Assembly (NCBI GenBank): GCA_964620535.1
Contig: CAZUHN010000095.1
Coordinates: forward strand, 1 to 45,854
Reading direction: 5' to 3'
DNA from: an uncultured Nitrospinaceae bacterium
GTDB lineage: Bacteria > UBA8248
Length of the DNA: 45,854 nt
Shown: in pieces, positions 9,014 through 45,074 of the stretch
How the letters are laid out: every line of letters begins with the position of its first letter
Position numbering within the stretch: position 1 is the first letter of the stretch
The notes under the pieces: generated by a model
What the model was told of the DNA's origin: nothing
What the model saw: the letters and a program-made list of their open reading frames with translations, nothing else
The model's database searches: none
Made by a program: the position numbers and the translations under genes

Positions 9014-9781
9014 GTGGTCTCCATTCTCATACTTCTTTATCTTGTCGCGGCGATTGCCCACCTCTACAACCTGTATTCAAAGCGTGACGCCCTGCTGTAC
9101 GTTGGCATCGGAACTCTGATCGCGGGATTCGTGTTCCATTCCTTCCTCCTCGGTTTCTACTACCTCTCTACCGACGAACATGATTGGGGCACCTGGCTGA
9201 ACTCCCTCGCCTGGGCGATTGTTCTCTTGTATTTGATCGTCTTCCTCCGCTACCGGGAGATGGCCCTCGGCGGGTTCGCCGTTCCGGCTGCCTTCGTCCT
9301 TGCGGGTTACGCCACCGCTTCTCCCGGCATATGGGGAAAAGGGTCGCAAACGGTCGAAGGGTTTCTTCTGGGCAGTCACGCCGTTCTCGCCATTCTCAGC
9401 GCCAGCACTTTTTTCCTTCTTTTCGCGGTGGCGCTGATGTTCGTCGTTCAGTCCCGCGAGCTCAAATCAAAACGGCCCGGGGCTTGGCTCCGCCGCCTTC
9501 CGCCGCTCGATGTGCTCGACGATCTCAGCCACAAGGCGCTCTATTTCGGTTTTACGTTTCTGACGGCAAGCCTTTTCTTCGGGTCTATGTGGGCATGGTC
9601 CAAGTACGGGGTCATATGGGCGTCGAAGCCCTTGAAGATTTGGCCTATGCTCGGCATCTGGCTCGCTTACGGTGTCTTGCTTTCTTGCCGCCTGACTCGC
9701 AGCTGGAAGGGAATGCGGTCGGCGGTTTTTTCCATGGCGACTTTCCTCGCTGTACTGGTTGCCCTGCTCGTCCACATCTAG
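9014..9781 (+). CDS. CcsA/HemX-like cytochrome c assembly family membrane protein
   Basis: Polytopic membrane protein with a W-rich segment (FFGSMWAWSKYGVIWASKPLKIWPMLGIWLAY). It sits immediately upstream of hemA, as in hemAXCDBL-type operons. RBS TAGGAGGA. Confidence 0.7.
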   Translation: MVSILILLYLVAAIAHLYNLYSKRDALLYVGIGTLIAGFVFHSFLLGFYYLSTDEHDWGTWLNSLAWAIVLLYLIVFLRYREMALGGFAVPAAFVLAGYATASPGIWGKGSQTVEGFLLGSHAVLAILSASTFFLLFAVALMFVVQSRELKSKRPGAWLRRLPPLDVLDDLSHKALYFGFTFLTASLFFGSMWAWSKYGVIWASKPLKIWPMLGIWLAYGVLLSCRLTRSWKGMRSAVFSMATFLAVLVALLVHI

Positions 9782-9798
9782 AAGGACGGAATAGCCCG

Positions 9799-11139
9799 AT
9801 GCCATTGATTCTCACAGGTGTAAGCCACCACAAAACACCCATCGAGATCCGCGAGCGCCTGCATTTCGCCGAAAAAGGGCTTCACGATTCGCTCGATCGG
9901 TTGGGGCGCTACAATGATCTCTCGGAGCGTTTGATTCTCTCTACCTGCAACCGAATGGAAGTTTACAGCTTCGCCGAGGAATTCGATGCGGGGGTGCGTT
10001 CCATCCGGGACTTCATCTCCGAGTTCCGCGGAATCCAAGCGGAGGAGTTGCGGAAGCATCTTTACGTTTGCCGCGATGAGGACGCCGTTCGCCATCTCTT
10101 CCGCGTGACGTCGAGTCTGGATTCGTTGGTAGTGGGAGAGCCGCAGATCCTCGGCCAGGTGAAGGAGGCCTACCGGATCGCGAACGAAGGCGGGCACACC
10201 GGAAAATCTCTCTCGGCGGTTTTTTCCAGCGCCTTCCGGGCGGCGAGGAAAGTCCGGGATCGGACAGGCATCGGAGAAAGCGCGGTGTCGGTGAGTACGG
10301 TGGCGGCCGAGCTGGCCGAAAAGATATTCAGCCGCCTAGCCGGGAAAACCATCTTGCTCTTGGGCGCCGGTGAGATGTGCGAGCTGGCGGCCCGCCACTT
10401 GATGAGTCGCGGAGCGAGCACGGTTTTGGTCGGAAACAGGACTTACTCCCGCGCCGAGGCCTTGGCGGCGGAGCTGAACGGCAGGGCCGTGCGATTCGAC
10501 CGCGTCGCCGAAGAACTCGTCGGAGCGGACATCGTCATCGCATCGACGGGAGCGCCCCATCTCATCGTAAAAAGGGAAATGCTCACGGAAGCCTTGCGGA
10601 AGCGGCGCGACATCCCCATTTTTCTCATCGATATCGCGGTTCCCCGGGATATCGATCCCGAGGTGAACAGCCTGGAGAACGTCTTTCTCTATGATATCGA
10701 TGACCTGCAGGGGGTCGTCACCTCCAACCTGCAGGGCCGGGAAGCCGAGGTCGAGAGCGCGAGCGCGATAGTCGAGGACGAAATCCAGGGTTTCGTCCGC
10801 CGGATGCGAGTGGAGGATCTCTCGGAAACCTTTTCCGCCATCCGGGTCGGCGCCGAAGCGCAACGCCAGGGCGAGCTTCAGAAGACGTTCTCCCGCCTCG
10901 CCTCTCTCGGAGAGCCCGAGCGCAGCGCCATCGACGCCATGTCGCGTGCGCTGGTGAACAAATTGTTGCATCATCCTTTCACCGCTCTTCGCGGAATGGC
11001 GGCAGAAGAAATCGGAGACGAATCCCTCGCAATGGTGAAGCGGCTCTTTGGACTGAAGGAGGAGTCCGGCGGAAAGGCGCAAGGAACCGAGGACGGCGAA
11101 GGCCAAACGCGCGATGAAAAGGAGCTCGGCTCTCCGTAG
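9799..11139 (+). CDS. hemA: glutamyl-tRNA reductase
   Basis: MPLILTGVSHHKTPIEIRERL...STCNRMEVY (catalytic Cys)...LLGAGEMCE. The track ORF 9184..11139 is over-extended through the upstream gene. ATG 9799 gives the normal length of about 446 aa. Confidence 0.9.
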   Translation: MPLILTGVSHHKTPIEIRERLHFAEKGLHDSLDRLGRYNDLSERLILSTCNRMEVYSFAEEFDAGVRSIRDFISEFRGIQAEELRKHLYVCRDEDAVRHLFRVTSSLDSLVVGEPQILGQVKEAYRIANEGGHTGKSLSAVFSSAFRAARKVRDRTGIGESAVSVSTVAAELAEKIFSRLAGKTILLLGAGEMCELAARHLMSRGASTVLVGNRTYSRAEALAAELNGRAVRFDRVAEELVGADIVIASTGAPHLIVKREMLTEALRKRRDIPIFLIDIAVPRDIDPEVNSLENVFLYDIDDLQGVVTSNLQGREAEVESASAIVEDEIQGFVRRMRVEDLSETFSAIRVGAEAQRQGELQKTFSRLASLGEPERSAIDAMSRALVNKLLHHPFTALRGMAAEEIGDESLAMVKRLFGLKEESGGKAQGTEDGEGQTRDEKELGSP

Positions 11140-16076: not shown

Positions 16077-16862
16077 GTGTTGGGCTACGAACGTCTTTTA
16101 TTCGAGTCGGCCGGGGAGGTCGCCACGGTGACCTTTAATCGCCCGGACGTGCTGAATGCCCTTGATCTGGAGACGATGGAGGAGTTGGCCGACGCCACGC
16201 GGCGCGTGAAGACGGACCCGAAGTTGAAGGTGCTCATCCTGACTGGGACAGGCGAGAAGGCTTTCGTGGCCGGGGCGGACATTCGGCGGATGGCCGATAT
16301 GGCCTCCCGGGATGCGCGGGAATTTTCCCGGTTCGGCCAGCGCGTCCTCCGGGAGATGGAGACGCTGGGAAAGCCCTCCATCGCGGCCGTGAATGGTTTC
16401 GCCCTGGGCGGCGGATGCGAGGTGGCGATGGCCTGCTCCATCCGGTATGCCGCCGAGACTGCGCGCTTCGGCCAGCCGGAAATTTCCCTCGGGATCATTC
16501 CGGGCTACGGCGGCACGCAGCGCCTCGCCCGCCTCGTGGGATTGGGCCGCGCGTTGGAGATTTGCCTGACCGGCGGGATGGTGTCCGCCGGGGAGGCCCT
16601 TCGGATCGGCCTTGTGAACAAAGTGGTTCCGGCCGACACGCTCATGGATGAAGCGCGGACGCTCGCGGAGAAGCTCGCTGCGAATAGCGCTCCGGCGATG
16701 GATTTGATTCTGAAGGCGTGCAACGAGGGCATGGAGGTGGGAATCGAAGCGGGGCTCGAACTGGAATCGGTGCTGTTCTCCCTCGCCTTCAACAACGAAG
16801 ATCAGAAAGAGGGAATGGCCGCTTTCCTGGAAAAACGCCCGCCGAATTTCCGGGACTCCTGA
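16077..16862 (+). CDS. enoyl-CoA hydratase/isomerase (crotonase family)
   Basis: [45 protein letters not shown] start. Confidence 0.9.
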
Positions 16863-17713: not shown

Positions 17714-18896
17714 GTGAATTTTCTCCCTTCACTGGAGGTCCCGTTGGCGGTTTCCACCCATCCCGAACTCGATGAGGCAGGCCGCGCCCTCCGCGGGCTG
17801 ACCAGGGATTTTGCGGAAAAAACCCTGGCCCCAGGGGCGGCCGAGCGCGATCGCACCTGCAAGTTTCCTCTCGATTTGTACAAGGAGGCGGGGGAGTTGG
17901 GCCTTCTCGGCATCCATTTCCCGGAAAAGTTGGGAGGCGGTGGGGCCGGTCATTTCGAGAACCTGCTTGTTCTTGAAGAGCTGGCCCGGGTGGACGGTAG
18001 CTTCGCCCTGACCGTTGGTGTCTCCGTGGGCCTGACGGGAGGGCACATTCTGGGCGGTGGCTCGGAAGAGCAAATTCGGCGGTGGGTTCCGCCCCTTCTC
18101 GAAGGCGGGCTCGGGGCCTGGGCGCTGACCGAGCCGAGATCGGGGAGCGACGCGGGCGCGCTGCACTGCCGCGCCGAACGGGAGGGTGATTCCTACATAC
18201 TGAACGGAACGAAGATGTTCATCTCGCAAGGTACGATGTTTTTGAGCATGACTGTCATGGCGCGAACGGGGCGGGGAAAAAAGGAAATCAGCGCATTCGT
18301 CGTTGAACCCGGCGACCTGGGTCGAGTGAGCCGTCCGCTCCACGGAAAACTGGGCATGCGCTCCATGGATACGGCGGAAGTGATTTTTGAAAATTGTCGT
18401 ATTCCGGCCGACCGCCTCCTCGGGGGGGAAGGGGAGGGATTCCTCCAAGCGATGGAAGCCGTCAGGGGGGGCGCGCGTGGGGGTTGGAGCCATCGCCGTC
18501 GGCCTCGCCCAGGGGGCGCTCGATGCGGCCGCCGGACGCGCCCGCGATCGAGAAGCCTTTGGCGACCCGATCGCCCAGTACGGAGCGATCCGCGAGATGA
18601 TCGCCGAGAGTGTGATCGAACTGGCGGCAGCGCGGGAGTTGGTTGCGCATGCGGCCCGCCGCCGAGACGCCGGGGAGGAATATCAGAAAGAGGCGTCGAT
18701 GGCCAAGTTATTCGCGACTGAGGCCGCCCTCCGCGTGTGCGACAGAAGCATTCAGATCCACGGAGGGTACGGTTACATGGACGAGTGTCCGGCGGGGCGC
18801 TTTTTGCGCGATGCCCGTCTGCTTACGATCGGAGAAGGAACGAGCGAAGTGCAGCGGATGATCATCGCGCGATCCGTCTTCGGCGGGCGCGTTTGA
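17714..18896 (+). pseudogene. acyl-CoA dehydrogenase, split by a 1-nt frameshift at a G7 run
   Basis: ORF 17714..18721 carries the N-terminal and middle domains (ALTEPRSGSDAGAL, ILNGTKMFISQG). ORF 18387..18896 carries the C-terminal helical domain (REAFGDPIAQYGAIREMIA..., IHGGYGYMDECPAGRFLRDARLLTIGEGTSEVQ). Removing one G at 18465-18471 joins them as QAMEAVRGARVGVGAIAVGLAQGAL. Confidence 0.85.
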
Positions 18897-29245: not shown

Positions 29246-29337
29246 GAATATTCCGGTTGCCTGATATTCGCGCGAGCTAACTGGTGGGGAGGGTGGGAGC
29301 GATTTCCTTCCGTCCCCTTTTCGAAAGGAGTGATTCG

Positions 29338-29994
29338 GTGATCCACGCTCCGGTCCGCTTCAAGGTGTTCAGCGATTTTCTTTGACCCTGGTGCTTCAAT
29401 TCGGCCGTGCGCCTGAACAAAATCCAGGATGAATATGGAGACAAGGTAGATATCGAGTATCGCTCGTTTCTCCTCCGCCCAGAGCCCGACCCGGACTGCG
29501 TTTTTAATGATTACAGGCGCGCGCATTGGATAAATGCAAACGACCAGCTCGAATCCGGCGATTTTCGAATGTGGGAAAGCGATGAAAAATTCCCCGTCTG
29601 CTCGATAGTTTCGGCCGAGGCGGGCTTGGCCGCCCGCGACCAAGGGAAGGCCTTTTGGGATCGCTTTCATTTGAATCTTCTGACCGCTTTTTTCACCGAA
29701 AACCGGAACATCTCCGACGCGGCCGTACTGATGGGCGTCGCCGAGGAGAGTGGCCTGGACGTTGATTCATTCCGGGACGATCTTGAGAGCGGTGTGAATC
29801 GCCGCCGGGTGGTCGAGGAGTATGTCGAAGCGGTAAACCGGTACGGCATTTCAGGGATCCCCTCCGTCGTCGTAAACGAGGAGGCAGTCATGGTGGGCGC
29901 GGTGCCGAGCGAACACTACCGGCACGTGATAGATAACATCCTAGAAACGGGAGTGCTTCCCAAAAAGTTCTCTGGTGACCTGCCGACGGTATGA
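29338..29994 (+). CDS. DsbA/FrnE-like thiol:disulfide oxidoreductase with in-frame TGA (candidate selenocysteine) in the redox motif
   Basis: GTG 29338 lies 7 nt after AAAGGAG. Translation is MIHAPVRFKVFSDFL-TGA(29383-29385)-PWCFNSAVRLNKIQDEYGDKVDIEYRSFLLRP..., and the TGA occupies the first Cys of the family motif SDFxCPWC. The track ORF 29407..29994 is the part after the TGA. The C-terminal GISGIPSVVV is typical of DsbA-like proteins. Confidence 0.7.
29400..29417 (+). promoter_or_regulatory. candidate SECIS-like hairpin downstream of the in-frame TGA
   Basis: UUCGGC-CGUGC-GCC(U)GAA is a 6-bp stem with one bulged U and a 5-nt loop containing GU, starting 14 nt after the UGA. Alternative pairings exist (GGUGC 29390-29394 with GCGCC 29409-29413; CCUGG with CCAGG). 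Nothing was evaluated computationally. Confidence 0.3.
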
Positions 29995-30044
29995 CGTAGG
30001 GAGCCGATACAAGGTCGGCCCGCCCGCGTGGTGAGGATTGCAAT

Positions 30045-31052
30045 CTGAATCATCCTGGTTTTTCCGGCTGTATTACCGATGTTCCTGGCTTTTCCCTGGG
30101 CCACTTTCATGACCTTGACGCGTTCACCGGCGTCACCGTCATTCTTTGTCCCGCCGAAACAACCGCCGCCTGTGAACTGCGCGGAACAGCCACTGCGACT
30201 CGCGGGATCGATGCCCTTCGCCCGGAGCATCTCGTTGGTTGGCCGCAGCACGTTGCCGGATACCTTGACGCCATCGTCTTCGCGGGCGGAAGCGCCTTCG
30301 GGCTCGCGGCGGCGGGCGGTGTGATGCAATTCCTCGAGGAGCGGGGAAGGGGCCTGTTCACGGGAAGATACCGTGTTCCCGCGGCGGCGGCGGCGGTTAT
30401 ATTCGATCTCAATTTCGGGCGCGGCGATGTACGGCCGGACGAGGCGATGGGCCGTGCCGCCTGCGAAGCGGCCACCGATAGAGAGGGGCCGCAGGGAAGC
30501 ATCGGAGCCGGAACGGGCGCGACCGTAGGAAAGTTATTGGGAATGAAGCGCGCCATGAAAGGGGGGCTCGGCACGGCTAGCATCATCCTTCCGGGAGGAG
30601 GGGTCGTTGCCGCGATCGCAGTGGTGAACGCCTACGGAGGAGTTCACAATGTTGAATCGGGGGAATTCCTGGCGGGGCCGCGAGCAGAGCCACCCGAAGA
30701 AGGTTTTGTCGATACCTCGTTGTATTTGAGGACAAAGGGTCGGCCCTTTGAGGGTTTTTCGGGCACGGAAGGAAACACAACCTTGGTTGCAGTGGCGACG
30801 GACGTGGCTCTTACGAAAACCCAAACCCAGAAGCTCGCCCAAATGGCGGCGAATGGATTGATTCTCACCGTGCGTCCTTCCTATACGACTGTGGACGGAG
30901 ACGTGGCCTTCGCCCTCTCTTGCGGGCGCCGGCAGGCCAACCTCGATGAGGTCGGAGCAGCGGCCCAGGATACCGTGGCGCGTGCCCTACGCCGTTCCAT
31001 CGTAGAAGCGAACGGTTTCGGTCTTCTCCCCGCCCACCGGGATTTGCGGTGA
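30045..31052 (+). CDS. peptidase family S58 / DmpA-like (P1 aminopeptidase family), start codon unresolved
   Basis: Family similarity runs from ITDVPGFSLGH (30072), through TGVTVIL, AIVFAGGSAFGLAAAGGVMQFLEERG, VIFDL, GAGTGATVGKLLG..MKGGLGTAS, to the self-processing site GNTTLVAVATD. There is no in-frame ATG, GTG or TTG between stop 29997 and 30321. CTG 30045 lies 7 nt after GAGGA. The track ORF 30321..31052 is N-terminally truncated. Confidence 0.75.
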   Translation: MNHPGFSGCITDVPGFSLGHFHDLDAFTGVTVILCPAETTAACELRGTATATRGIDALRPEHLVGWPQHVAGYLDAIVFAGGSAFGLAAAGGVMQFLEERGRGLFTGRYRVPAAAAAVIFDLNFGRGDVRPDEAMGRAACEAATDREGPQGSIGAGTGATVGKLLGMKRAMKGGLGTASIILPGGGVVAAIAVVNAYGGVHNVESGEFLAGPRAEPPEEGFVDTSLYLRTKGRPFEGFSGTEGNTTLVAVATDVALTKTQTQKLAQMAANGLILTVRPSYTTVDGDVAFALSCGRRQANLDEVGAAAQDTVARALRRSIVEANGFGLLPAHRDLR

Positions 31053-31229: not shown

Positions 31230-31558
31230 GGCTCGGTGCCTAAATAGTGCCTATGGAGCATGTGACCTGCCCCCGATAGTGGTACCACCCCTCATGTTAG
31301 TCCTTCAGTCACCTCCTCAGGAGGGCGAAGCGTAGCTTGGCCGTCGAGAATCTTTTTTTGCGAAAACAACTCGCATTTATGCAGGAGCCAGGCTGCTCCA
31401 CGGTCTCCCGAAACTCAGGTCACGGTGGTCTCCCGTCCGCGCCGACTCTCCATGGGGAGTCGACACTCATTATCTTACTAGTATGGCAAGGAAGAGTTCT
31501 TATGGGATTGATACAAGGTCAGTAGAATGGTTTCAGAGGATCCAGGAAGGAGGACGTG

Positions 31559-33910
31559 ATGACAGGAGGAAACTTTTTGCAGAATAAGCCGTTTTGTCTG
31601 GAAGAAACAACGATTGATGAGTTGCACACCGCGATCAAGTCAGGGCAGACGACCTGCGTGGAGATCGTTCAACACTATATCGACCGCGTTCGCACCTACA
31701 ATGGGGGCGCCAGTATGCTCGTGACAGAAGACGGCGGTCCCGTCCCCGAAGCGCCGTGTGCCGTGCGCGGGAAGGAGGCGTTCTGCTTCCCGACGCAGAC
31801 CCTTAAGGCCGACACGGTCCTGCCTGATCTCGACAAGTACAAGGGGCCGCCGCTCGAATACGGCCGCATGGAGGCGACGGCCTCCGACCCCAGCGTGCAA
31901 CAGCAGTTAGGGATGATCGCTGGCATTCCGAACGCCGGGCAGCTGAACGCACTCGCCACCCTCAACATACGGGGCGAGCGTTCAGTCACCTGCCACGGTG
32001 ATTTCGACAGGCACCCCTCCGAGGGACCGCTTCCCCCCGGCGCCCCTCCCGTGTGCGACATGTTCCGCCGGATGCCCGACGCGCTCGAGCGCGCAGCCGA
32101 GCTCGACGCCATCTACGGGCGCAATCCCGATCTGGAAAAGATGCCGATGTACGGCGTTGTCTTCTCGTTCAAGGATTCGTTTGACACGAAGGACATGCGG
32201 TCCACGGGCGGAGGCGACGCGCGCTACGATATCGACTTTCCCGCACGCGATCACGCGCTGGTCGATCAGCTACGTAACAAGGGTGCGATCATCTTCGCCA
32301 AAGCGGTTTGTACCGAGTACAACGGACGGGCGGGTAATCCGGGCGGCCGCCACGAGCCCGAGAAAGTGCTGCCCTCGACGCTGGGCTACCAGCGCAGCAC
32401 CTGGGCCGGCAATCCCGTCAACCCCTACGACACGACGCGCGCGGCCTCCCTGGGATCGAGCTCAGGGTCAGGTTCCTCAGTCAGCGCCAATCTGGTGATG
32501 GCCAGTCTTGGCGAGGAGACGCGGGCGTCGACCCGCGGCCCGGCCAACCACAATGCCGTGGCGCTCATCCTGCCCCACAAGGCGATGCTCGGTTTCATCG
32601 GCGGTGCCATCGGCGCGGATATCTATTGCGACCGCACCGGCATCCTGTGTCGCACGATCGGCGATTGCGCCAAGGTCCTCGACGCCCTGGATGACCCTGT
32701 CGAGGGTTATTACGACCCGCGTGACCCCTTCACGACTGTGCCGCGCTCTTCGGTGCTGGGAACGCCCTACGCAAGCCATACGGCCATGCCGGGAACACAG
32801 GGCATCCTCAATGGCATGCGCATCGGGATCATCCGGGAGTCCATGATGATCTGGCCGGACTCGAAGAGCGAGATGCCGATCATCACCGCGGCCGCGAGGG
32901 AGATCAAGACAATTCTCGGCGGCAGACTCGGGGCTACGCTCGCGGAATCGACCGATCCCCTCTGGGAGCCAGACCCGGACATCGAGGTCATGAAGACGGA
33001 TTTCCGGCGCGCGCTCGCCAGGCTGGTGCCCGTATTCATGCCAGACATCCTGTTCCGACTGAGGCCGGACGGACAGCCCCTCTTCAAGGAGTTCGCGGCG
33101 GCGATCGTGCCGACCGAGTTCATGCCCGGAAAATTCTTCGGTACGGGGACCATGAAGCCGATCGACTACCTCGTCGAGCTGGCGGACGGAAGGATCACGC
33201 CCCCCTCGAACCTCGACCTTCCCACCGTCCAGCAGTGGGAGGTGTCGATGACGTTCCGATATCACATCCACCAGTACCTGTCCCGGCGCGCCGCTGACTG
33301 GAAGGCTTGCGGCTTCACCGAGACCCTCGTCGACTTCGCCTCCCTCAACGCGCGCTCCAAGTTCTGGGGAGACGATCAGCGCGCCGCCTTCAAGAACTGG
33401 GAGGAGGTGTCCGACCCCCGGAACCCCCACGGCCAGCGCCAATCCGTCAGCGAGCGCATCATGCTGCGCGAGCTGCTGCGCCGAGTGGACATGATGGTGA
33501 TCCTGGAGAACCATCTGGATGTGCTGGTCCGCCTTCACACGCCGTTTCCGCCGGGAAAGATCGGCGGTCCCAGCTCGTCGGGAATTTGGCATAATCTGCG
33601 CCCGGAATCATTCAACGGTCCGAACGCGGGTTTGACGGAGGTTCTGATCCCGGCGGGCTACGTCACCACCGTCTACGATCCGGTCTTCGCGCTCAGTCCG
33701 GATCGCACGCACTACGTGTCGCTCCCATCGGAGAAGCACGCCAAGATCCCGGATCCCGGGTTACCCTTTTCCCTTGTCTTTCGGGCCGAACCGGGCAAGG
33801 AAGATATCCTTCTGAAGGTCGCGTCGGCGTATGAAGCTGCCTCGAAACGCCGCATACCTCCGCCAGCTTTTGGCCCGCTGCCGGCGAAATCTCGTGGAGC
33901 CGCATCCTAG
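31559..33910 (+). CDS. large divergent amidase-signature (AS) family protein (about 783 aa)
   Basis: FSFKDSFD (catalytic Lys region), Gly/Ser-rich LGSSSGSGSSVSANL, and LGEETRASTRGPA in place of the usual GTDTGGSIRxPA. ATG 31559 follows AGGAAGGAGGA. Confidence 0.75.
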   Translation: MTGGNFLQNKPFCLEETTIDELHTAIKSGQTTCVEIVQHYIDRVRTYNGGASMLVTEDGGPVPEAPCAVRGKEAFCFPTQTLKADTVLPDLDKYKGPPLEYGRMEATASDPSVQQQLGMIAGIPNAGQLNALATLNIRGERSVTCHGDFDRHPSEGPLPPGAPPVCDMFRRMPDALERAAELDAIYGRNPDLEKMPMYGVVFSFKDSFDTKDMRSTGGGDARYDIDFPARDHALVDQLRNKGAIIFAKAVCTEYNGRAGNPGGRHEPEKVLPSTLGYQRSTWAGNPVNPYDTTRAASLGSSSGSGSSVSANLVMASLGEETRASTRGPANHNAVALILPHKAMLGFIGGAIGADIYCDRTGILCRTIGDCAKVLDALDDPVEGYYDPRDPFTTVPRSSVLGTPYASHTAMPGTQGILNGMRIGIIRESMMIWPDSKSEMPIITAAAREIKTILGGRLGATLAESTDPLWEPDPDIEVMKTDFRRALARLVPVFMPDILFRLRPDGQPLFKEFAAAIVPTEFMPGKFFGTGTMKPIDYLVELADGRITPPSNLDLPTVQQWEVSMTFRYHIHQYLSRRAADWKACGFTETLVDFASLNARSKFWGDDQRAAFKNWEEVSDPRNPHGQRQSVSERIMLRELLRRVDMMVILENHLDVLVRLHTPFPPGKIGGPSSSGIWHNLRPESFNGPNAGLTEVLIPAGYVTTVYDPVFALSPDRTHYVSLPSEKHAKIPDPGLPFSLVFRAEPGKEDILLKVASAYEAASKRRIPPPAFGPLPAKSRGAAS

Positions 33911-34243: not shown

Positions 34244-35662
34244 CTAGGAGACAGGCGGGCGACGGCTTCGAATCTCGGGTGTAGCTTCTTCGAATGCGTG
34301 GGCGATTCGAAGGAGAAGACCCTCGCTCCAGGGCGACCCCAGAATCTGGAGAGAGACGGGAAGGCCATCCGGGCTGAAACCGCTGGGGACGGCGATTGCC
34401 GGAACCCCCGTGAAGTTGTGGGAGCTAGTCAGTGGACCGCCAATAAATCGTAGTGACTTTTTCTGCCCGTTCACCTTTGTCACCTCGGTTTCGATGGGAC
34501 CTGTCACACAAGGATATGTGGGCAGTAGAAAGGCATCCACCGAGCGGAAGAGGTCGAGGATGGAGCGGCGGATCAATTCCTTCTCTCGGTGAGCCCAAAT
34601 GTATTCGTCCAACCTTATCTTTCTCCCGGCTTCGATGCGCTCGCGAGTGTCTTCTCCATACCCTTCGGGATGATTGGCGAAACGCTCGTGGTGCACGGAG
34701 AAAAGATCGGCGCGGCCAATGATGTCCCTTGCCTTCATAAGTCTATCCATTTCCGTGAAACGGACCTCCTTGATTTGTGCGCCCAGCTGGATGAACACCT
34801 TAACCGTCTCCTCGAAGGACTTCGTTACCACCGTGTCGATGTCTGTGGCCATGAAATCTTCGCAAAGGCCCAAACGCAGTTCCTTAACGCCTTTTTCGAT
34901 CTTGTCGCAGAAATCGGGAACCGTCCGATCTACCGAAACCGGGTCAAGGGGATCATAGCCCGCCATCCCCTGGAGGAGAAGCCCGCAGTCGCGCGCGCTG
35001 CGGGCAAGCGGTCCCGCGTGATCGAGACTCGTCACGTTGGGGTAGACTCCCCGGAGACTCACGAGTCCGTAGGTGGGTTTGAGCCCCACTACACCGCAAA
35101 GCGCCGCCGGCCCACGGATGGATCCGCCCGTGTCGCTCCCGGTGGCGGCCGGACAGAGGAAGGAGGCGACCGCCGCCGCGGAGCCTCCGCTCGACCCTCC
35201 AGGAATCATCTTCGGGTTCCAGGGATTGCGCGAATTACCAAAGAATGGATTCTTGGTGGTGGTGCCGGTGGCAAATTCATGTGTATTGCACTTCCCGATG
35301 AGGATCACCCCTGCCTCCTTCAGGCGGCGGATGGATTCGGCATCCTCGACCGGCACGTTTCCGCGGTAGAAGCTTGAACCATGGGTGGTGCGAACTCCCG
35401 CGGTGTCGAAGATGTCCTTCACCCCAAAAGGGATTCCGTGAAGAGGGCCGCGGAAATGACCGCGGAAGATCTCACCCTCTGCCACTTTCGCGGCCTGGAG
35501 CGCCTCCTCGCCGCATACGGTGATGAAGGCGCCCAGCTTTGAATTCAATGTTTCGATTCGCGCCAGATGTGTTTCTGCCACCTCAAGGGGGGACAGTTGC
35601 CTCGATCGGATGCGGCGTGCGAGCTCAAAGAGGGTGAGAAAACATAGCTCATTACTGCCCAT
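34244..35662 (-). CDS. amidase (amidase-signature family, GatA-like)
   Basis: Canonical motifs GIPFGVKDIFD, GGSSGGSAAAVA, ATGSDTGGSIRGPAALCGVVGLKPTYG. 472 aa. Confidence 0.9.
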   Translation of the reverse strand: MGSNELCFLTLFELARRIRSRQLSPLEVAETHLARIETLNSKLGAFITVCGEEALQAAKVAEGEIFRGHFRGPLHGIPFGVKDIFDTAGVRTTHGSSFYRGNVPVEDAESIRRLKEAGVILIGKCNTHEFATGTTTKNPFFGNSRNPWNPKMIPGGSSGGSAAAVASFLCPAATGSDTGGSIRGPAALCGVVGLKPTYGLVSLRGVYPNVTSLDHAGPLARSARDCGLLLQGMAGYDPLDPVSVDRTVPDFCDKIEKGVKELRLGLCEDFMATDIDTVVTKSFEETVKVFIQLGAQIKEVRFTEMDRLMKARDIIGRADLFSVHHERFANHPEGYGEDTRERIEAGRKIRLDEYIWAHREKELIRRSILDLFRSVDAFLLPTYPCVTGPIETEVTKVNGQKKSLRFIGGPLTSSHNFTGVPAIAVPSGFSPDGLPVSLQILGSPWSEGLLLRIAHAFEEATPEIRSRRPPVS

Positions 35663-36263: not shown

Positions 36264-37250
36264 ATGAAGCTTGCGGCGTTCACTGCGCCTGACGCGCCGA
36301 ATGAGGAACGGGCTGGCTTCCTCGTTTCGGATGGAAGGCTCGCCGATGTGCGCGCCGCATATTCGGCCCTGTTGGCAGGGGACACGTCCGCGCAGGAAGC
36401 GGGGCGATCCCTTCCGTCTTCCGACTTGGCCGGTATCATCCAGGACGGCTCCCCGGCCTTGGATGTGCTCAAGATTCTTCAGGAACGCCTGGAGAGCGAT
36501 TTGGATAAAGGGAAGGAATTTTCCCAAGCTGCGGGACAAACCATTCTTTTTCCGCAGAACGAGGTCACCTTCCTTCCCCCTGTTCCGCGACCGGGCAAAA
36601 TCATCGCCCTCGGGATGAATTATAAGGACCATCTCGACGAAGGAGGCGATGTTCACCATGCCCCGATTTTCCCCATGGCCTTCATCAAAGTGAGTACTAC
36701 CCTCACGGGACACCTCCAGCCCATTCAGATCCCGAGGGGATCGACCCAGGTGGATTATGAGGTGGAGGTGGCGATGGTGGTCGGCCAGGGAGGCGCGAAC
36801 ATCGCCGAAAAGGATTGGAAAAAACATATATTCGGCTATACGATTTTGAACGATGTCAGTGAGCGGGAGGTCCAGCTGCCCGAATTGAAATCGGGCTTGC
36901 TCAACCTGGGAAAAAACTTCCCCACCTTCGGTCCGATGGGTCCTTGGGTGGTCACGGTCGACGAGGTGCCCAATCCCGAGGACATCGAAATTTCCTGCAC
37001 CGTCAACGATGAGCAGGAGCCGCGCCAGAGTTCGAACACCAAACATCTGATCTTCGGGATGTCCCTCCAGGTTGCCCATTTTTCACGGATGGGCCTCGAG
37101 CCCGGCGACGTGATCGCCACAGGAACTCCTTCGGGGGTGGCCGTTTTTCGCGATCCGCCCCATCCTTGGTGGCTCAAGCCCGGAGACGAGGTTCGCTGTG
37201 AGGCGTCCGGCATCGGAACCCTCGTCAATCCGGTGACCGCATCCGAGTAA
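36264..37250 (+). CDS. fumarylacetoacetate hydrolase (FAH) family protein
   Basis: GKIIALGMNYKDH, DYEVEVAMVVG, GYTILNDVSERE, GDVIATGTPSGV. ATG 36264 is preferred to the TTG 36237 of the track. Confidence 0.85.
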   Translation: MKLAAFTAPDAPNEERAGFLVSDGRLADVRAAYSALLAGDTSAQEAGRSLPSSDLAGIIQDGSPALDVLKILQERLESDLDKGKEFSQAAGQTILFPQNEVTFLPPVPRPGKIIALGMNYKDHLDEGGDVHHAPIFPMAFIKVSTTLTGHLQPIQIPRGSTQVDYEVEVAMVVGQGGANIAEKDWKKHIFGYTILNDVSEREVQLPELKSGLLNLGKNFPTFGPMGPWVVTVDEVPNPEDIEISCTVNDEQEPRQSSNTKHLIFGMSLQVAHFSRMGLEPGDVIATGTPSGVAVFRDPPHPWWLKPGDEVRCEASGIGTLVNPVTASE

Positions 37251-37354
37251 ATCGAAGTATTCGCCGGAAAAGGGGAAATCCCCCCCCCTCCCTGGCCGGA
37301 TGCTTTTCCTTCTCCGATTTTTCCCGAAGCGGCATTGCGGAAATACGGTTTGGC

Positions 37355-37383
37355 TTGACTTCGGATTTTGTTGCGCGGATAAA
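37355..37383 (+). promoter_or_regulatory. candidate sigma70-type promoter upstream of the formamidase-like gene
   Basis: TTGACT (37355-37360), a 17-nt spacer, then GATAAA (37378-37383). This would give a GC-rich leader of about 160 nt. Confidence 0.3.
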
Positions 37384-37552
37384 TAAAGAAACTTTTTCGT
37401 TTCCAGGGTGGTTGCCATAAATTCTGCCGGAGGACCTGCGCCCCTCGGCGGGGGGAAACTGCGGCTGAAAGAGTGGGAACCTTGTTGTTTGGCCGGCCAT
37501 CCCGCCCCGTTTCCGCGCACGGTCGGCGCGCACGCGAGAGGAGGAAAATGGT

Positions 37553-38512
37553 ATGAAGCGGATTCCCCGTGATCAGGCCATCGGATATCTCCTCAGCAAA
37601 GATATTCCTCCCGTCCTGCGCGTCTCGCCGGGCGAGGCGTTCGCCGTCGAGACCGAGGACAACGTCGAAGGCAACCTGCGGTCGGAGGACCGCCTCCCGA
37701 CCGTCGAGTACATTCCGGGCCTGGCCTTCACCCCTGGCAAGGCGAATCCGGTGGCGGGGCCTATCTACGTCGAGGGGGCCCAGAAAGGGGACACCCTCGC
37801 GGTCCGCATCGGCCGGATAGAGCCCGACGAGCAGGGAGTGACGTTTTTCGGGGCCGGATTCGGGCCTCTCGACGATTCGATCAAATGGCCCGAGCTGGGC
37901 AAACCTTTTACCAAGATCATCCGCCACGAGGCGGGGCCGAGTGGCACACGAAGGGACGGCAGGGCCATCTTCAACGAGAAAGTGAGCTGGGAACTCGAGC
38001 CCTTCATCGGGACCATTGCCACCGCGCCCGAGTGGGAAGGCGAGGCCGCGGTGCTCGGACAAGGCCTCTACGGAGGCAATATGGACGTGCGCGACGTCAA
38101 GGAGGGGAACACCCTTTTCCTCAACTGCTTCGTCGAAGGAGGGCTCCTTTTCGTCGGAGACGTTCACGCCTCTCAGTCTGACACCGAGTGGTACGCGGCG
38201 GCGAACGAATGCCGAGCAGAGCTTGAACTGCGCTGCGAGGTGATCAAGAATAAGGAGATTCCCAATCCGCGCATCGAAACGCCCGAGGCTATCATCCAGC
38301 TTTGCAGCGACAAGCCCCTCGAGGCCGCCGTCAACCGCGCCCTGACCGACCTGGTGGATTGGATGGTGACCGATTACGGCGTGGACGTGAAGGACGCCTA
38401 TATGTTCACTTCCATCTGTCCGGACGTGCGGATTCGCGTATACCAGATGTGTCCTCTCGGAAGGCTCCGCTTCACGGTTGGGGCCGAGATCGCGAAACGC
38501 CACCTCGTCTGA
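37553..38512 (+). CDS. acetamidase/formamidase family protein
   Basis: NPVAGPIYVEGAQKGDTLAVRI, GGNMDVRDVKEGNTLFL, GGLLFVGDVHASQSD. The length and layout match the FmdA/AmdA family. Confidence 0.85.
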   Translation: MKRIPRDQAIGYLLSKDIPPVLRVSPGEAFAVETEDNVEGNLRSEDRLPTVEYIPGLAFTPGKANPVAGPIYVEGAQKGDTLAVRIGRIEPDEQGVTFFGAGFGPLDDSIKWPELGKPFTKIIRHEAGPSGTRRDGRAIFNEKVSWELEPFIGTIATAPEWEGEAAVLGQGLYGGNMDVRDVKEGNTLFLNCFVEGGLLFVGDVHASQSDTEWYAAANECRAELELRCEVIKNKEIPNPRIETPEAIIQLCSDKPLEAAVNRALTDLVDWMVTDYGVDVKDAYMFTSICPDVRIRVYQMCPLGRLRFTVGAEIAKRHLV

Positions 38513-38526
38513 GGAAAGGAGGCGCC

Positions 38527-38748
38527 ATGCCCACAGTCGTGGTCCATCTGAGCGAGGGTCGCACCGACGACCAAAAGCGCGAAATCATCAATGACATAAC
38601 TCAAATCTTTCTCCGTCAGGAGGTGCCACTGAAGGGGATAACCGTCATCCTCAACGAGATCCCCAATATGCATTATGGCCTCTCCGGAAAACCTGTAGCG
38701 GATCTCTTCAAGTCCCCCGAGGACGTTTCCGCCTACTTCGGTACCTGA
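38527..38748 (+). CDS. 4-oxalocrotonate tautomerase family protein
   Basis: Begins MPTVVVHLSEGRTDDQKREIINDITQ (Pro-1 after Met, typical 4-OT pattern). ATG 38527 follows AGGAGG. It lies inside the longer track ORF 38302..38748. Confidence 0.8.
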   Translation: MPTVVVHLSEGRTDDQKREIINDITQIFLRQEVPLKGITVILNEIPNMHYGLSGKPVADLFKSPEDVSAYFGT

Positions 38749-38765
38749 GGCAAAAGGAGGACCGC

Positions 38766-39521
38766 GTGGACTTCACCGGAAAAGTGGCTCTCGTCACAGG
38801 GGGATCGCGCGGAATGGGAAGGGAGATAGCGGTCCGTCTCGCCCAGGCGGGTGCGGATGTGGCCGTGAATTACGTTTCGAATATAGACGCGGCAGGAGAA
38901 GTCGTCGCCAAAATCCAGGCTGCGGGCAGAAAGGGCCTCGCCGTCCAAGCGGATGCGCGCAACCGCGCCGCGGTCGAGGCCATGGTCGATCGGGTGCAGA
39001 AGGAACTGGGTTCCATCAACGTCCTCATCGTAGCGGCAGGCCAGCTCATCGTAAAGGATTTCTTGGATACGACCGAAGAAGATTGGGATCTCATGTGGGA
39101 TCTGCACATGAAGGGAAGCTTCCTCGTCACCTATCCGGTGGCGAAGAAGATGAAGGAAAACGGGGGCGGGAACATCATCCTCATCACCTCGAGCACCGCC
39201 GCCAAGGTGGCCGATCCGGGCATCGCGGCCTACGGCTCCTCGAAGGCGGGCCAGACGATGTATGCCAAATCCCTCGCCTTTGCCTTGGCCGGCGACAACA
39301 TCCGAGTCAACGCCGTCGTACCGGGAACCACCCGGACCGATATGGTCGCCGAATGGCTCAAGGATCCCAAGATCGAGGAGGCACTCATCGAGCCCATTCC
39401 GCTGAAGCGTCTGGGGACGGTGGAAGACGTGGCCACGGCCTGCCTCTTCCTCGCCTCGGACGAAACTTCGTTCATCACCGGCGCCGCCCTTCCCGTGGAC
39501 GGCGGCTTCACGCTCGCTTGA
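38766..39521 (+). CDS. SDR family oxidoreductase (FabG-like), paralogue 1
   Basis: TGGSRGMGREIA, YGSSK (YxxxK) and a C-terminal PVDGG. NNAG is replaced by VAAG. Confidence 0.9.
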   Translation: MDFTGKVALVTGGSRGMGREIAVRLAQAGADVAVNYVSNIDAAGEVVAKIQAAGRKGLAVQADARNRAAVEAMVDRVQKELGSINVLIVAAGQLIVKDFLDTTEEDWDLMWDLHMKGSFLVTYPVAKKMKENGGGNIILITSSTAAKVADPGIAAYGSSKAGQTMYAKSLAFALAGDNIRVNAVVPGTTRTDMVAEWLKDPKIEEALIEPIPLKRLGTVEDVATACLFLASDETSFITGAALPVDGGFTLA

Positions 39522-39545
39522 GGAGGGGTCTCCCTGAACGCACGG

Positions 39546-40292
39546 ATGAAGGACCAGGTGGCCGTCGTGACCGGCTCTTCCCGCGGCATCGGCCGAGGGG
39601 TCGCGCTCAACCTCGCCGGGGAAGGCGCCAGGGTGGTGGTCAACTACGTCAACCGGAAGGACAAGGCCGAGGAAGTGGTGGAGGAAATCAAGTCTCTCGG
39701 CGGCGAGTCGATCGCCTGTCAGGCAGATGTTTCCAATAAAGAACAGGTGGACGCCATGATGGCCGAAGCGGTCAAGACCTTCGGGCGGATCGATGTCCTG
39801 GTGAATAACGCCGGGATCGTGGTCTTCAAAGAGTTTTTCGATTTCACCGAGGAAGACTGGGACTACACCACGAATACCAATGTTAAGGGCGTGTTCCTGT
39901 GCAGCCAGGCCGCGGCCCGGCAGATGATGAAGACCGGCGGCGGGAACATAGTGGGGGTTGCCTCCATCTCGGGCGAGAAGGTCACCGCCACCACCCAGAC
40001 CGCCTATTGCGCCTCCAAGGGGGGGTACCACATGCTCATCAAGTGCATGGCGGTGGCGCTGGCCCCGCACAAGATCCGGGTGAACGCAGTCCTTCCCGGC
40101 GGCATCCCGACCGATCAGAACATCGAGTTCCTCCAGGTCCCCGAAATCCTGGAATTCTTCGTCAACCACACGCCTTTGGGGCGGGTCGGCACCCCTGACG
40201 ACGTGGCGGGTGCTGTGAAATACTTCGCCTCGGACGAGGCGAGCTGGGTGACGGGGGCCCTCCTCGTCATGGACGGAGGGTACATTCTCTAG
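39546..40292 (+). CDS. SDR family oxidoreductase (FabG-like), paralogue 2
   Basis: TGSSRGIGRGVA, NNAG, YCASK, VMDGG. Confidence 0.9.
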   Translation: MKDQVAVVTGSSRGIGRGVALNLAGEGARVVVNYVNRKDKAEEVVEEIKSLGGESIACQADVSNKEQVDAMMAEAVKTFGRIDVLVNNAGIVVFKEFFDFTEEDWDYTTNTNVKGVFLCSQAAARQMMKTGGGNIVGVASISGEKVTATTQTAYCASKGGYHMLIKCMAVALAPHKIRVNAVLPGGIPTDQNIEFLQVPEILEFFVNHTPLGRVGTPDDVAGAVKYFASDEASWVTGALLVMDGGYIL

Positions 40293-40337
40293 CGGCGCGC
40301 GATCTGCTGGAAGGGCGAGGGAAAGAGCATAAAGAGC

Positions 40338-40769
40338 ATGAAGATAATCGGCCTCCACCACTCCACCATCGGGGTGGGCGACCTGGACCGCTCCCTCGCT
40401 TTTTACCGCGATTTGTTGGGGTTAAAGGAGGTACGCGTCTGGGTGGAGTCAGACCCCCAGGTGGACCTGATCGTGGGGCTCGAGGACGCTCACTTGAAAA
40501 TCGCCCACCTCGATACGGGTGGGGGCGTCGTCGAGCTCATCGAATACACCCGCCCAAAGGGCCGGCCAATATCGCCCGCGTTCCGCCAGTGCGACGTCGG
40601 ACCCACCCACATCGCCTTTCTCGTGGACGACATCGAAGGCTTCTACCAGAAGCTCAAAGACGTCGGCGTCAAATTCAGCTGCCCGCCCCAGGAGCGTCCG
40701 AACGGATGGAAGGCTACATATTTTTTCGATCCGGACGGGAGCACCCTGGAACTCCTCCAAGAGCCGTAA
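40338..40769 (+). CDS. VOC/glyoxalase-bleomycin resistance family protein
   Basis: LHHSTIGVGDLDRSLAFYRDLLGL...THIAF...DPDGSTLEL. Confidence 0.85.
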   Translation: MKIIGLHHSTIGVGDLDRSLAFYRDLLGLKEVRVWVESDPQVDLIVGLEDAHLKIAHLDTGGGVVELIEYTRPKGRPISPAFRQCDVGPTHIAFLVDDIEGFYQKLKDVGVKFSCPPQERPNGWKATYFFDPDGSTLELLQEP

Positions 40770-44485: not shown

Positions 44486-44606
44486 GACGAGTCCTTTCTC
44501 CTACGTCCACCGAGCAAACAAGATCGGCGGAGCTTGAGTGGCGCGAATTCTCTTTTTTATCGAATGACCTGTCTGCCGCCGGGGGTCCGGCGGGAAAGCC
44601 TCCCTC

Positions 44607-45074
44607 CTAGGAGCGAACCTGGAGCGTGAGAATCGTCTCGATCGGTGCATCGTAGGTGAGCTCGTTCTGGTACAGCGCGGCGCGGGCATGCTTTCCCTTC
44701 TCCTTGCCGAAGACTTCCACCAAAAGATCACTCTCACCGTTCACCACCCATGGCGCCTCCTTGAAGCCCGGCGCTGCGTTCACGTAGCCGACCAGGCGCA
44801 CCACGCGGATCACCCGGTCTAAATCTCCGTCGAGGCACTGCTTCGCCATGGCCAGGTGGTTCAGACCCGTAAGGCGGGCCGATTGATAGCCCTGCTCTAC
44901 GGTCAGGTCCGTTCCGAGCTTTCCCTTAATGGGAACCTCGCCGTTGACTATGCCGATGGTGCCCGCCAGATGAAGAATCTCTCCCACGATGACGCCCGGA
45001 ACATAATTCGCTACGGCCTGTGGCACCTCAGGCAGCACGATCCCCAATTCTTTGAGTCTTTCCTCAGCTCCCAT
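44607..45074 (-). CDS. RidA/YjgF family protein
   Basis: LPEVPQAVANYVPGVIVGEILHLAG...KGKLG..LTVEQGYQSARL...V.GYVNAAP...AR.A...L.....IE. 155 aa. Confidence 0.85.
   Translation of the reverse strand: MGAEERLKELGIVLPEVPQAVANYVPGVIVGEILHLAGTIGIVNGEVPIKGKLGTDLTVEQGYQSARLTGLNHLAMAKQCLDGDLDRVIRVVRLVGYVNAAPGFKEAPWVVNGESDLLVEVFGKEKGKHARAALYQNELTYDAPIETILTLQVRS

Follow-up and report, generated by a model that had tools for sequence, protein, structure and literature searches.

Contig CAZUHN010000095.1 (45,854 nucleotides, the whole of which was analyzed and is called the window below) carries on its forward strand a gene for a DsbA/FrnE-like protein, which follows the genes for MtaB and a SAM hydrolase (DUF62) and precedes a gene for a Peptidase_S58. 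In the list of open reading frames (ORFs) for the window, the DsbA-like gene starts at GTG 29407 and encodes 195 amino acids. The same frame can be entered farther upstream at GTG 29338, from which it runs through VIHAPVRFKVFSDFL, reaches a TGA at 29383-29385, continues with PWCFNSAVRLNKIQ (the residues directly after this TGA are PWCFNSAVRL), and stays open to the TGA stop at 29992-29994. A first-pass annotation of this DNA had read the gene in this manner and had proposed that the internal TGA is recoded locally as selenocysteine (Sec, U). Every coordinate on which it based this frame, from the AAAGGAG sequence to the listed ORF start, is exact. The features of the gene, all on the forward strand, are as follows.

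29324..29330 (+): Shine-Dalgarno (SD) sequence AAAGGAG, separated by 7 nt from the GTG start at 29338; all orthologous loci have an equivalent GGAG/AAGGAG ahead of their homologous start codon
29338..29994 (+): full coding sequence of the putative selenoprotein, 218 codons, with a GTG start, the predicted Sec-UGA as codon 16, and the TGA stop at 29992-29994; the predicted product, of about 24 kDa, is a thioredoxin-fold oxidoreductase of DsbA/FrnE type that lacks a signal peptide (Pfam DSBA, 76.5 bits)
29383..29385 (+): in-frame TGA, predicted to be read as selenocysteine; residue 16, the first position of the U-P-W-C redox motif
29383..29394 (+): active-site motif U-P-W-C (Sec16, Pro17, Trp18, Cys19); C16(U), P17, W18, and C19 are invariant in the ortholog alignment
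29407..29409 (+): GTG (Val24), taken by gene callers as the start of a 195-amino-acid 'DsbA family protein'; it lies inside the loop of the candidate selenocysteine insertion sequence (SECIS) and has no SD sequence upstream
29860..29862 (+): Pro175 of the G-I-P-S-V loop, at the cis-Pro position of the thioredoxin fold; invariant in two alignments and aligned with GITGVP of FrnE

The protein matches the DsbA/FrnE family (PF01323; COG2761; CDD cd03024), with U-P-W-C placed after strand beta-1. When the 23 upstream residues are added and the TGA is written as Cys, the Pfam DSBA score rises from 50.0 to 76.5 bits (cut-off 25.6 bits), and the start of the match moves from position 19 to position 3 of the 191-position profile, so that the full protein spans positions 3-188. 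Thus, the upstream piece belongs to the domain, and the ORF from 29407 indeed lacks the N-terminal redox motif, as had been claimed. The Pfam Thioredoxin_5 model also matches, with 51 bits, which is below the DSBA score. Only five residues precede strand beta-1 (MIHAP-VRFKVF). This leaves no room for a signal peptide, a conclusion read from the sequence rather than from a predictor. Besides the motif, the only cysteines are C54 and C88, with none after residue 88, and the protein ends in ...KKFSGDLPTV. Pro175 presumably adopts the cis conformation, as is usual in this family.

Conservation of the in-frame TGA

A search of a 5.8-billion-protein collection returned 47 homologues at 45-98% identity. 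All are approximately 190-195 amino acids long, cover only about 89% of the query, and are cut at the same point, a uniform shortening that we attribute to a conserved in-frame stop that misleads gene callers. DNA loci were fetched for the database homologues, and others were taken from species-representative genomes and metagenomes, and the upstream frame was read in each. TGA occupies a single column in 49 loci (L001-L025, L035-L050, a soil subclade consisting of L063, L070, L075, L096, L102, L104, and L118, and L119), and 48 loci other than the window share it. These include 18 distinct GTDB species genomes at 66-92% identity, as well as divergent subclades at about 37-57% identity. The nearest complete chromosome is OZ245330.1 (L008), with 92% identity at the protein level. 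Among the latter are a delta-proteobacterial-type subclade with the motif VYHDYC*PWCY and the soil subclade with the motif IIEYSDYL*PWCYPAAVRL (37-41% identity). Each TGA locus has its own SD sequence and start codon 14-18 codons upstream of the TGA, and the position of GTG 29338 aligns with ATG in 17 orthologues and with GTG in three. One of the loci (L119) comes from an independent short-read assembly that is approximately 99% identical to the window over 761 nt and carries the same GTG, TGA, and hairpin, which excludes an error in the window. The TGC or TGT that resequencing might have revealed at this site is therefore not seen.

At the same column, 70 loci carry a Cys codon (45 TGC and 25 TGT) within the motif SD(F/Y)LCPWC(F/Y). 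These are more distant homologues than the TGA forms. In a neighbor-joining tree, all TGA forms are monophyletic and sister to a large Cys clade, a topology that would fit one old Cys-to-Sec change that has been maintained since. In the 15 codons that precede the TGA, the encoded residues are kept while the codons vary; for example, five different codons occur for Leu15 and four for Val10. Therefore, the stretch before the TGA is translated in this frame. Furthermore, when the conceptual protein is used as a tblastn query, homologues align over residues 1-218, starting at residues 1-6 and not only from the codon at 29407, which is the outcome anticipated if the extended frame is genuine. Judged from the gain in DSBA score and the recurrence of the TGA, the pattern is far beyond chance.

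The genetic code of the window is otherwise conventional. Twelve of the 28 Pfam-verified genes end in TGA, including hemC and the DsbA-like gene itself, Trp is always encoded by TGG, and among these 28 genes an internal TGA occurs in the DsbA-like gene only. The use of TGA as an ordinary stop, together with the exclusive use of TGG for Trp, rules out a variant genetic code and bears out the earlier view that any recoding is local.

Candidate SECIS hairpin and coding constraint

A hairpin with the architecture of a bacterial SECIS (bSECIS) can be drawn directly downstream of the TGA, and it exists as described in the first-pass annotation, with its bulged U and GU-containing loop. In the list below, the U of the UGA is numbered 1.

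29400..29417 (+): candidate bSECIS core hairpin, beginning 14 nt after the TGA
29400-29402 paired with 29415-29417 (+): lower stem, U18-A35, U19-A34, and C20-G33
29403-29405 paired with 29411-29413 (+): upper stem, G21-C31, G22-C30, and C23-G29
29406-29410 (+): apical loop C24-G25-U26-G27-C28 (CGUGC), with G25-U26 at 29407-29408
29414 (+): bulged U32, on the 3' side of the hairpin
29387..29428 (+): outer helix CCUGG (29387-29391) / CCAGG (29424-29428), which encloses the hairpin in the minimum free energy (MFE) fold of the window; the window and L008 alone have it, and its role is uncertain

One sign of an RNA element superimposed on the coding sequence is found in codon usage. Codon entropy was computed for conserved residues whose codons are at least fourfold degenerate, of which six columns fall within codons +1 to +10 after the TGA. 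In 44 TGA genes, entropy is 0.64 bits in this zone versus 1.37 bits elsewhere (Mann-Whitney p = 1.6e-4). In 62 Cys genes, the corresponding values are 1.38 and 1.19 bits (p = 0.92), with no suppression. Synonymous-site suppression is thus confined to the 10 codons after the TGA and to the genes that bear it.

Structural comparisons point in the same direction. All 32 unique TGA sequences carry G25 and U26 unchanged, and the MFE fold of nucleotides 10-45 places these two bases in the apical loop in 30 of the 32, versus 19 of 57 unique Cys sequences (Fisher p = 1e-8, a value not corrected for phylogeny). This difference exists even though the average Cys form has the more stable fold over the same nucleotides. 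In a gapless alignment of the 32 sequences, 84.9% of cells can pair in the named hairpin, while slid registers give 25-60%. Shuffles of this alignment give 79.4%, and none of 500 reaches the observed value. Pair 19-34 is never broken in the 32 sequences (UA in 23, GC in six, and UG in three). Pair 18-35 appears as UA in 12 and CG in three, with 16 unpaired cells.

The E. coli fdhF SECIS has a bulged U beside its upper stem, a feature that the window hairpin shares. The window hairpin differs from this element and from the bSECIS model in that its bulged U lies on the 3' side and in that it matches no curated covariance model. The published bSECIS consensus (the bSECISearch model, as summarized in PMC13188914, Fig. 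[quoted passage not shown] Like the model, the window hairpin sits in coding sequence right after the UGA; its 5-nt loop (CGUGC) has G at position 2 followed by U, and 20 nt (29386-29405) separate the UGA from the loop. Unlike the model, it has only 3 bp directly under the loop, or 6 bp when the 3-bp stems on both sides of the bulge are counted, and the MFE of its core (nucleotides 10-45) is -4.2 kcal/mol, against -12.1 kcal/mol for a 63-nt fold that takes in the outer helix close to the UGA. Stem length and MFE are borderline relative to the thresholds. Many relatives add four more base pairs to the stem, and the MFE of their hairpins ranges from -3.6 to -14.5 kcal/mol over the same nucleotides.

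A separate observation concerns the Cys-form genes. Many of them (among L052-L117) contain a GC-rich GCCGCGGUGCGGC stretch, at nucleotides 19-33 after the Cys codon, that encodes A-A-V-R-L. It is this stretch that folds with GU in the apical loop in 19 of the 57 unique Cys sequences, and it does so without synonymous-site constraint. The fold could be a by-product of the encoded residues and GC content that pre-adapts the site, or it could be a fossil SECIS.

Decoding of the UGA

Given the alignments and the coding constraint, 29338-29994 is very likely a selenoprotein gene for a cytoplasmic DsbA/FrnE-type enzyme in which the first active-site Cys is replaced by Sec. More specifically, we consider it highly probable that the UGA at 29383 encodes selenocysteine. 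The local recoding put forward at the outset is thus favored by the 49 TGA and 70 Cys loci and by the RNA constraint downstream of the UGA. By analogy with the established bacterial Sec pathway, the hairpin would be bound by SelB-GTP-Sec-tRNA(Sec) as the ribosome nears the UGA, and SelB would then deliver Sec at this codon in competition with release factor 2 (RF2). In the folded protein, as in other thioredoxin/DsbA folds, Sec16 is expected to lie at the N-terminus of helix alpha-1 facing the cis-Pro175 loop, where it would most likely act as the nucleophile on substrate disulfides, as is standard for UxxC enzymes of this fold and as the biochemistry of FrnE would suggest. Cys19 would resolve the intermediate, such that the enzyme would cycle via a Sec16-Cys19 selenenylsulfide. 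On the model of FrnE, the enzyme would act as a cytoplasmic disulfide reductase or isomerase that is more reactive than the Cys form.

Several observations weigh against this interpretation, and most of them concern the hairpin. Its core is weak, as noted above, and the 63-nt fold of the window sequence (-12.1 kcal/mol) is no better than that of shuffles (z = 0.19). The upper stem is invariant or nearly so and offers no evidence of covariation, which leaves the lower stem alone as informative. Divergent subclades keep a GU-loop hairpin in slightly shifted registers, and about a third of the Cys-form genes are able to form a similar hairpin. RNAalifold finds no consensus pairs in the gapless alignment of 32 sequences and 48 columns, and no Rfam family matches positions 29300-29500 at the gathering threshold or at E <= 10. 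The proposal that a SECIS follows the TGA has therefore fared unevenly: the GU loop in 30 of 32 sequences, the compensatory changes, and the Sec-specific codon suppression speak for it, and the weak fold and the missing RNAalifold consensus speak against it.

The remaining objections concern the genome. No selA, selB, selD, or tRNA-Sec gene is present in the window, as had already been observed, or in the fetched flanks, and no tRNA-Sec is found among 29 fetched loci. Likewise, a scan for in-frame TGA codons revealed no second selenoprotein gene in the window or in 15-20 kb flanks. The relatives of the window are named Nitrospinota, Nitrospinaceae, or Tectomicrobia bacterium, and GTDB clusters Tectomicrobia, UBA8248, and neighboring phyla (PMC10839748). 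The BSepDB resource, which admits only genomes with at least two of SelA, SelB, and SelD, lists three UBA8248 metagenome-assembled genomes (MAGs) among its ten most selenoprotein-rich bacteria, with 48-54 selenoprotein genes each; these MAGs are named Nitrospinota, Nitrospinaceae, or Nitrospinae, and Sec machinery is present in them (PMC13326102). However, we infer the place of the window in this selenoprotein-rich lineage only from the organism names of its relatives. The residual doubt regarding Sec stems from the weak hairpin and from the Sec machinery, for which the window and flanks were scanned.

Two other predictions in this DNA and its relatives deserve mention. In L004/L005, ARAGORN reports a 92-nt 'tRNA-???' with a two-base anticodon at 16758-16849 (+), which lies inside recG and is probably a false positive. 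The scan for further selenoprotein genes gave only noise, and its most promising candidate, at 44538-44822 (UPVC), is antisense to a RidA-family gene.

The simplest competing explanation is that the TGA is a true stop that closes a 15-residue leader, and that the product is the 195-amino-acid protein from GTG 29407, a DsbA-like domain without the first strand and the CxxC motif. Every public annotation treats the gene in this way (47 database homologues), TGA is a normal stop in this genome, and no Sec machinery is seen in the window and flanks. We nevertheless judge this explanation to be highly improbable. GTG 29407 has no SD sequence and sits within conserved coding sequence, and its conservation is accounted for by its place in the hairpin loop. 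The 15 upstream codons are maintained as protein, with synonymous variation, and they match the beta-1 strand and CxxC region of the family, whereas a protein begun at 29407 would miss this strand and the whole redox motif. In addition, the TGA aligns exactly with the Cys of 70 homologues. Even less credible, to the point of being negligible, is the notion that the TGA came about through faulty sequencing or assembly, or through a recent nonsense mutation that left a pseudogene. The sequence is admittedly not flawless, since the window holds at least one apparent frameshift (in an acyl-CoA dehydrogenase gene, 17714-18721 / 18387-18896). However, the same TGA occurs in the approximately 99% identical assembly over 761 nt, in 18 species-level genomes, and in subclades down to about 37% identity. 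Apart from the TGA, the reading frame shows no damage, and purifying selection acts both before and after this codon. All TGA forms constitute one old clade. The conservation across loci and the independent assembly effectively refute this explanation.

Another alternative is that ribosomes do decode the UGA but insert something other than Sec, either always or part of the time. Near-cognate read-through might insert Cys or Trp, or Cys-tRNA(Sec) might be used under selenium scarcity, with the hairpin merely slowing termination. Both the failure to see Sec machinery in the window or flanks and the weakness of a hairpin that misses some of the published bSECIS thresholds would be compatible with such a scheme, but we grant it only a slim chance. 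A leaky stop at an essential catalytic residue is hard to explain across a deep clade, particularly when a one-base change to TGC or TGT would give Cys, as in the sister clades. Moreover, an apical loop that contains GU and keeps a constant 20-nt distance from the UGA agrees with the SelB-dependent bSECIS model, and the protein family is an established selenoprotein family (PMC1088965, PMC13188914). Insertion of selenocysteine thus appears to be the best explanation for the conserved UGA.

Neighboring genes, annotation, and known relatives

The gene directly downstream of the putative selenoprotein gene recurs in many of the TGA loci.

30045..31052 (+): Peptidase_S58 (DmpA-like), with an apparent CTG start at 30045-30047 after the SD sequence GAGGA at 30033-30037

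By tblastn, an S58 gene is the immediate downstream neighbor in 38 of 46 Sec-form loci versus 0 of 63 Cys-form loci, and it is absent from the soil Sec subclade and from L035. Apparently the pairing originated inside the Sec clade, and its conservation suggests a shared operon function with the selenoprotein. In about 20 species, including the window (the loci are the window, L001, L006, and L008-L025), the S58 gene has no ATG, GTG, or TTG before its conserved N-terminus (GCITDVPGF.LGH). An invariant CTG is instead located nine codons upstream of ITDV and 7-9 nt after a GGAG-type SD sequence, at a distance of a few dozen nucleotides from the stop of the DsbA-like gene, and in L016, L021, and L025 an in-frame stop is found just upstream of it. 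This conserved CTG looks like the S58 initiation codon. Gene callers shorten the gene (to a 243-amino-acid ORF in the window and to 277 amino acids in L006), and in the sister subclade L037 and L044-L046 the S58 gene starts with ATG. The S58 gene itself is not frameshifted.

Perhaps the Sec-form DsbA-like protein and S58, a self-processing Ntn-hydrolase, form a dedicated two-gene module that originated within the Sec clade, although we regard this as rather unlikely. If true, the selenoenzyme could be a redox partner or activator of S58, or both proteins could act on one disulfide-containing peptide. Weak initiation at CTG might also tie S58 output to ribosomes that have passed the Sec-UGA, which would make expression of the peptidase selenium-dependent.

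Some other genes of the window have unusual structures. The acyl-CoA dehydrogenase gene at 17714-18896 (+) is split: ORF 17714-18721 holds the N-terminal and middle domains, and another frame, at 18387-18896, holds the C-terminal one (144 bits to acyl-CoA reductase/dehydrogenase models). The frameshift, located near 18400-18470, is either an assembly indel or the mark of a pseudogene. In the hemA ORF at 9184-11139 (+), the GlutR_N domain starts only at residue 212, and the N-terminal extension overlaps ORF 9014-9781; the true start is probably much farther downstream, or an upstream gene has been fused into the reading. Two ORFs of 555 and 542 amino acids, at 36836-38503 (-) and 38733-40361 (-), match no Pfam or NCBIfam model; the pair is flanked by an amidase gene and a TRAP transporter operon. 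Finally, the ORF at 31556-33910 (+), with 784 amino acids, has only a partial Amidase match (residues 173-434, 94.6 bits) and is much longer than the adjoining canonical amidase at 34244-35662 (472 amino acids).

The shortened public annotations of the DsbA-like gene have a plausible origin. The database homologues all start at or near the GTG of Val24, and those that have a name are labeled 'DsbA family protein' or similar. NCBIfam release 20 contains no model for the DsbA-like selenoprotein family, and we ascribe the uniform truncation to this gap. The best NCBIfam match, to a different seleno-lipoprotein family, reaches 41 bits where the cut-off is 190. On our reading of the gene, all 47 database homologues would be mis-annotated and would be deprived of their catalytic motif. 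A family model with Sec at residue 16 would correct the whole clade, which comprises Nitrospinota/Tectomicrobia/UBA8248-type and delta-proteobacterial MAGs. With these findings, a known selenoprotein family would gain a deep Sec clade that is monophyletic, and the clean contrast in synonymous constraint between Sec and Cys forms illustrates a SECIS superimposed on coding sequence. They do not change what is known of selenocysteine decoding or DsbA-family chemistry.

Among solved structures, the second-tier match is YjbH/SpxH (Thioredoxin_5, PDB 6ghb; E = 1.4e-7), which spans almost all of the protein (residues 4-182). This protein is a Firmicutes ClpXP adaptor for Spx, whereas the window gene has no Spx context, and the match is weaker than that to DSBA. 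To our knowledge, YjbH/SpxH has no selenoprotein forms.

The best structural match is Deinococcus radiodurans FrnE (DR_0659; PDB 5cnw/5cp1), with E = 1.2e-10 and 44.8 bits. The FrnE segment WSDIACPWCY (5cnw) aligns with FSDFL[U]PWCF, which places the TGA on Cys22 of the C22-P-W-C25 motif (numbering from PMC8945050). FrnE works in the cytoplasm as a disulfide reductase/isomerase of the DsbA family and has no signal peptide; the window protein has none either. The two share the CPWC-type motif context and the cis-Pro loop G-(I/V)-P. Overall similarity is low, however, and FrnE has Cys where the window protein is predicted to have Sec. FrnE also carries a CxxxxC motif in its C-terminal tail (residues 239-244), which contributes to active-site regeneration (PMC8945050). 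The window protein, with no Cys after residue 88, has no such tail, and neither do some FrnE homologues (PMC8945050).

The closest known system is a selenoprotein family. A 'DsbA-like protein' of COG2761 with a UxxC motif was first described in 2005 from the Sargasso Sea metagenome by Zhang et al. (PMC1088965), and DsbA-like selenoproteins were later found in Anaeromyxobacter dehalogenans, Desulfovibrio desulfuricans, and Desulfotomaculum reducens (PMC1794560). A 2026 review calls the family 'DsbA-like protein form 1' (COG2761/PF01323, UxxC; PMC13188914). The first-pass annotation was therefore right to recall that DsbA-like selenoproteins had been reported. The window clade differs in its hosts, which are Nitrospinota/Tectomicrobia/UBA8248-type MAGs unlike those in the form 1 reports, and its pairing with an S58 peptidase has no mention in the form 1 literature consulted. 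Published example sequences of form 1 are AACY01178397 and NIP15863.1. Otherwise the two are alike: they share the Pfam/COG family, the UxxC motif with Sec in place of the first Cys, a SECIS-like hairpin directly downstream with G in a small apical loop, and widespread Cys homologues. By the sequence-level criteria of the field, which are a Sec/Cys pair, TGA orthologues, and a SECIS-like hairpin, the window gene is a member of this known DsbA-like form 1 family.

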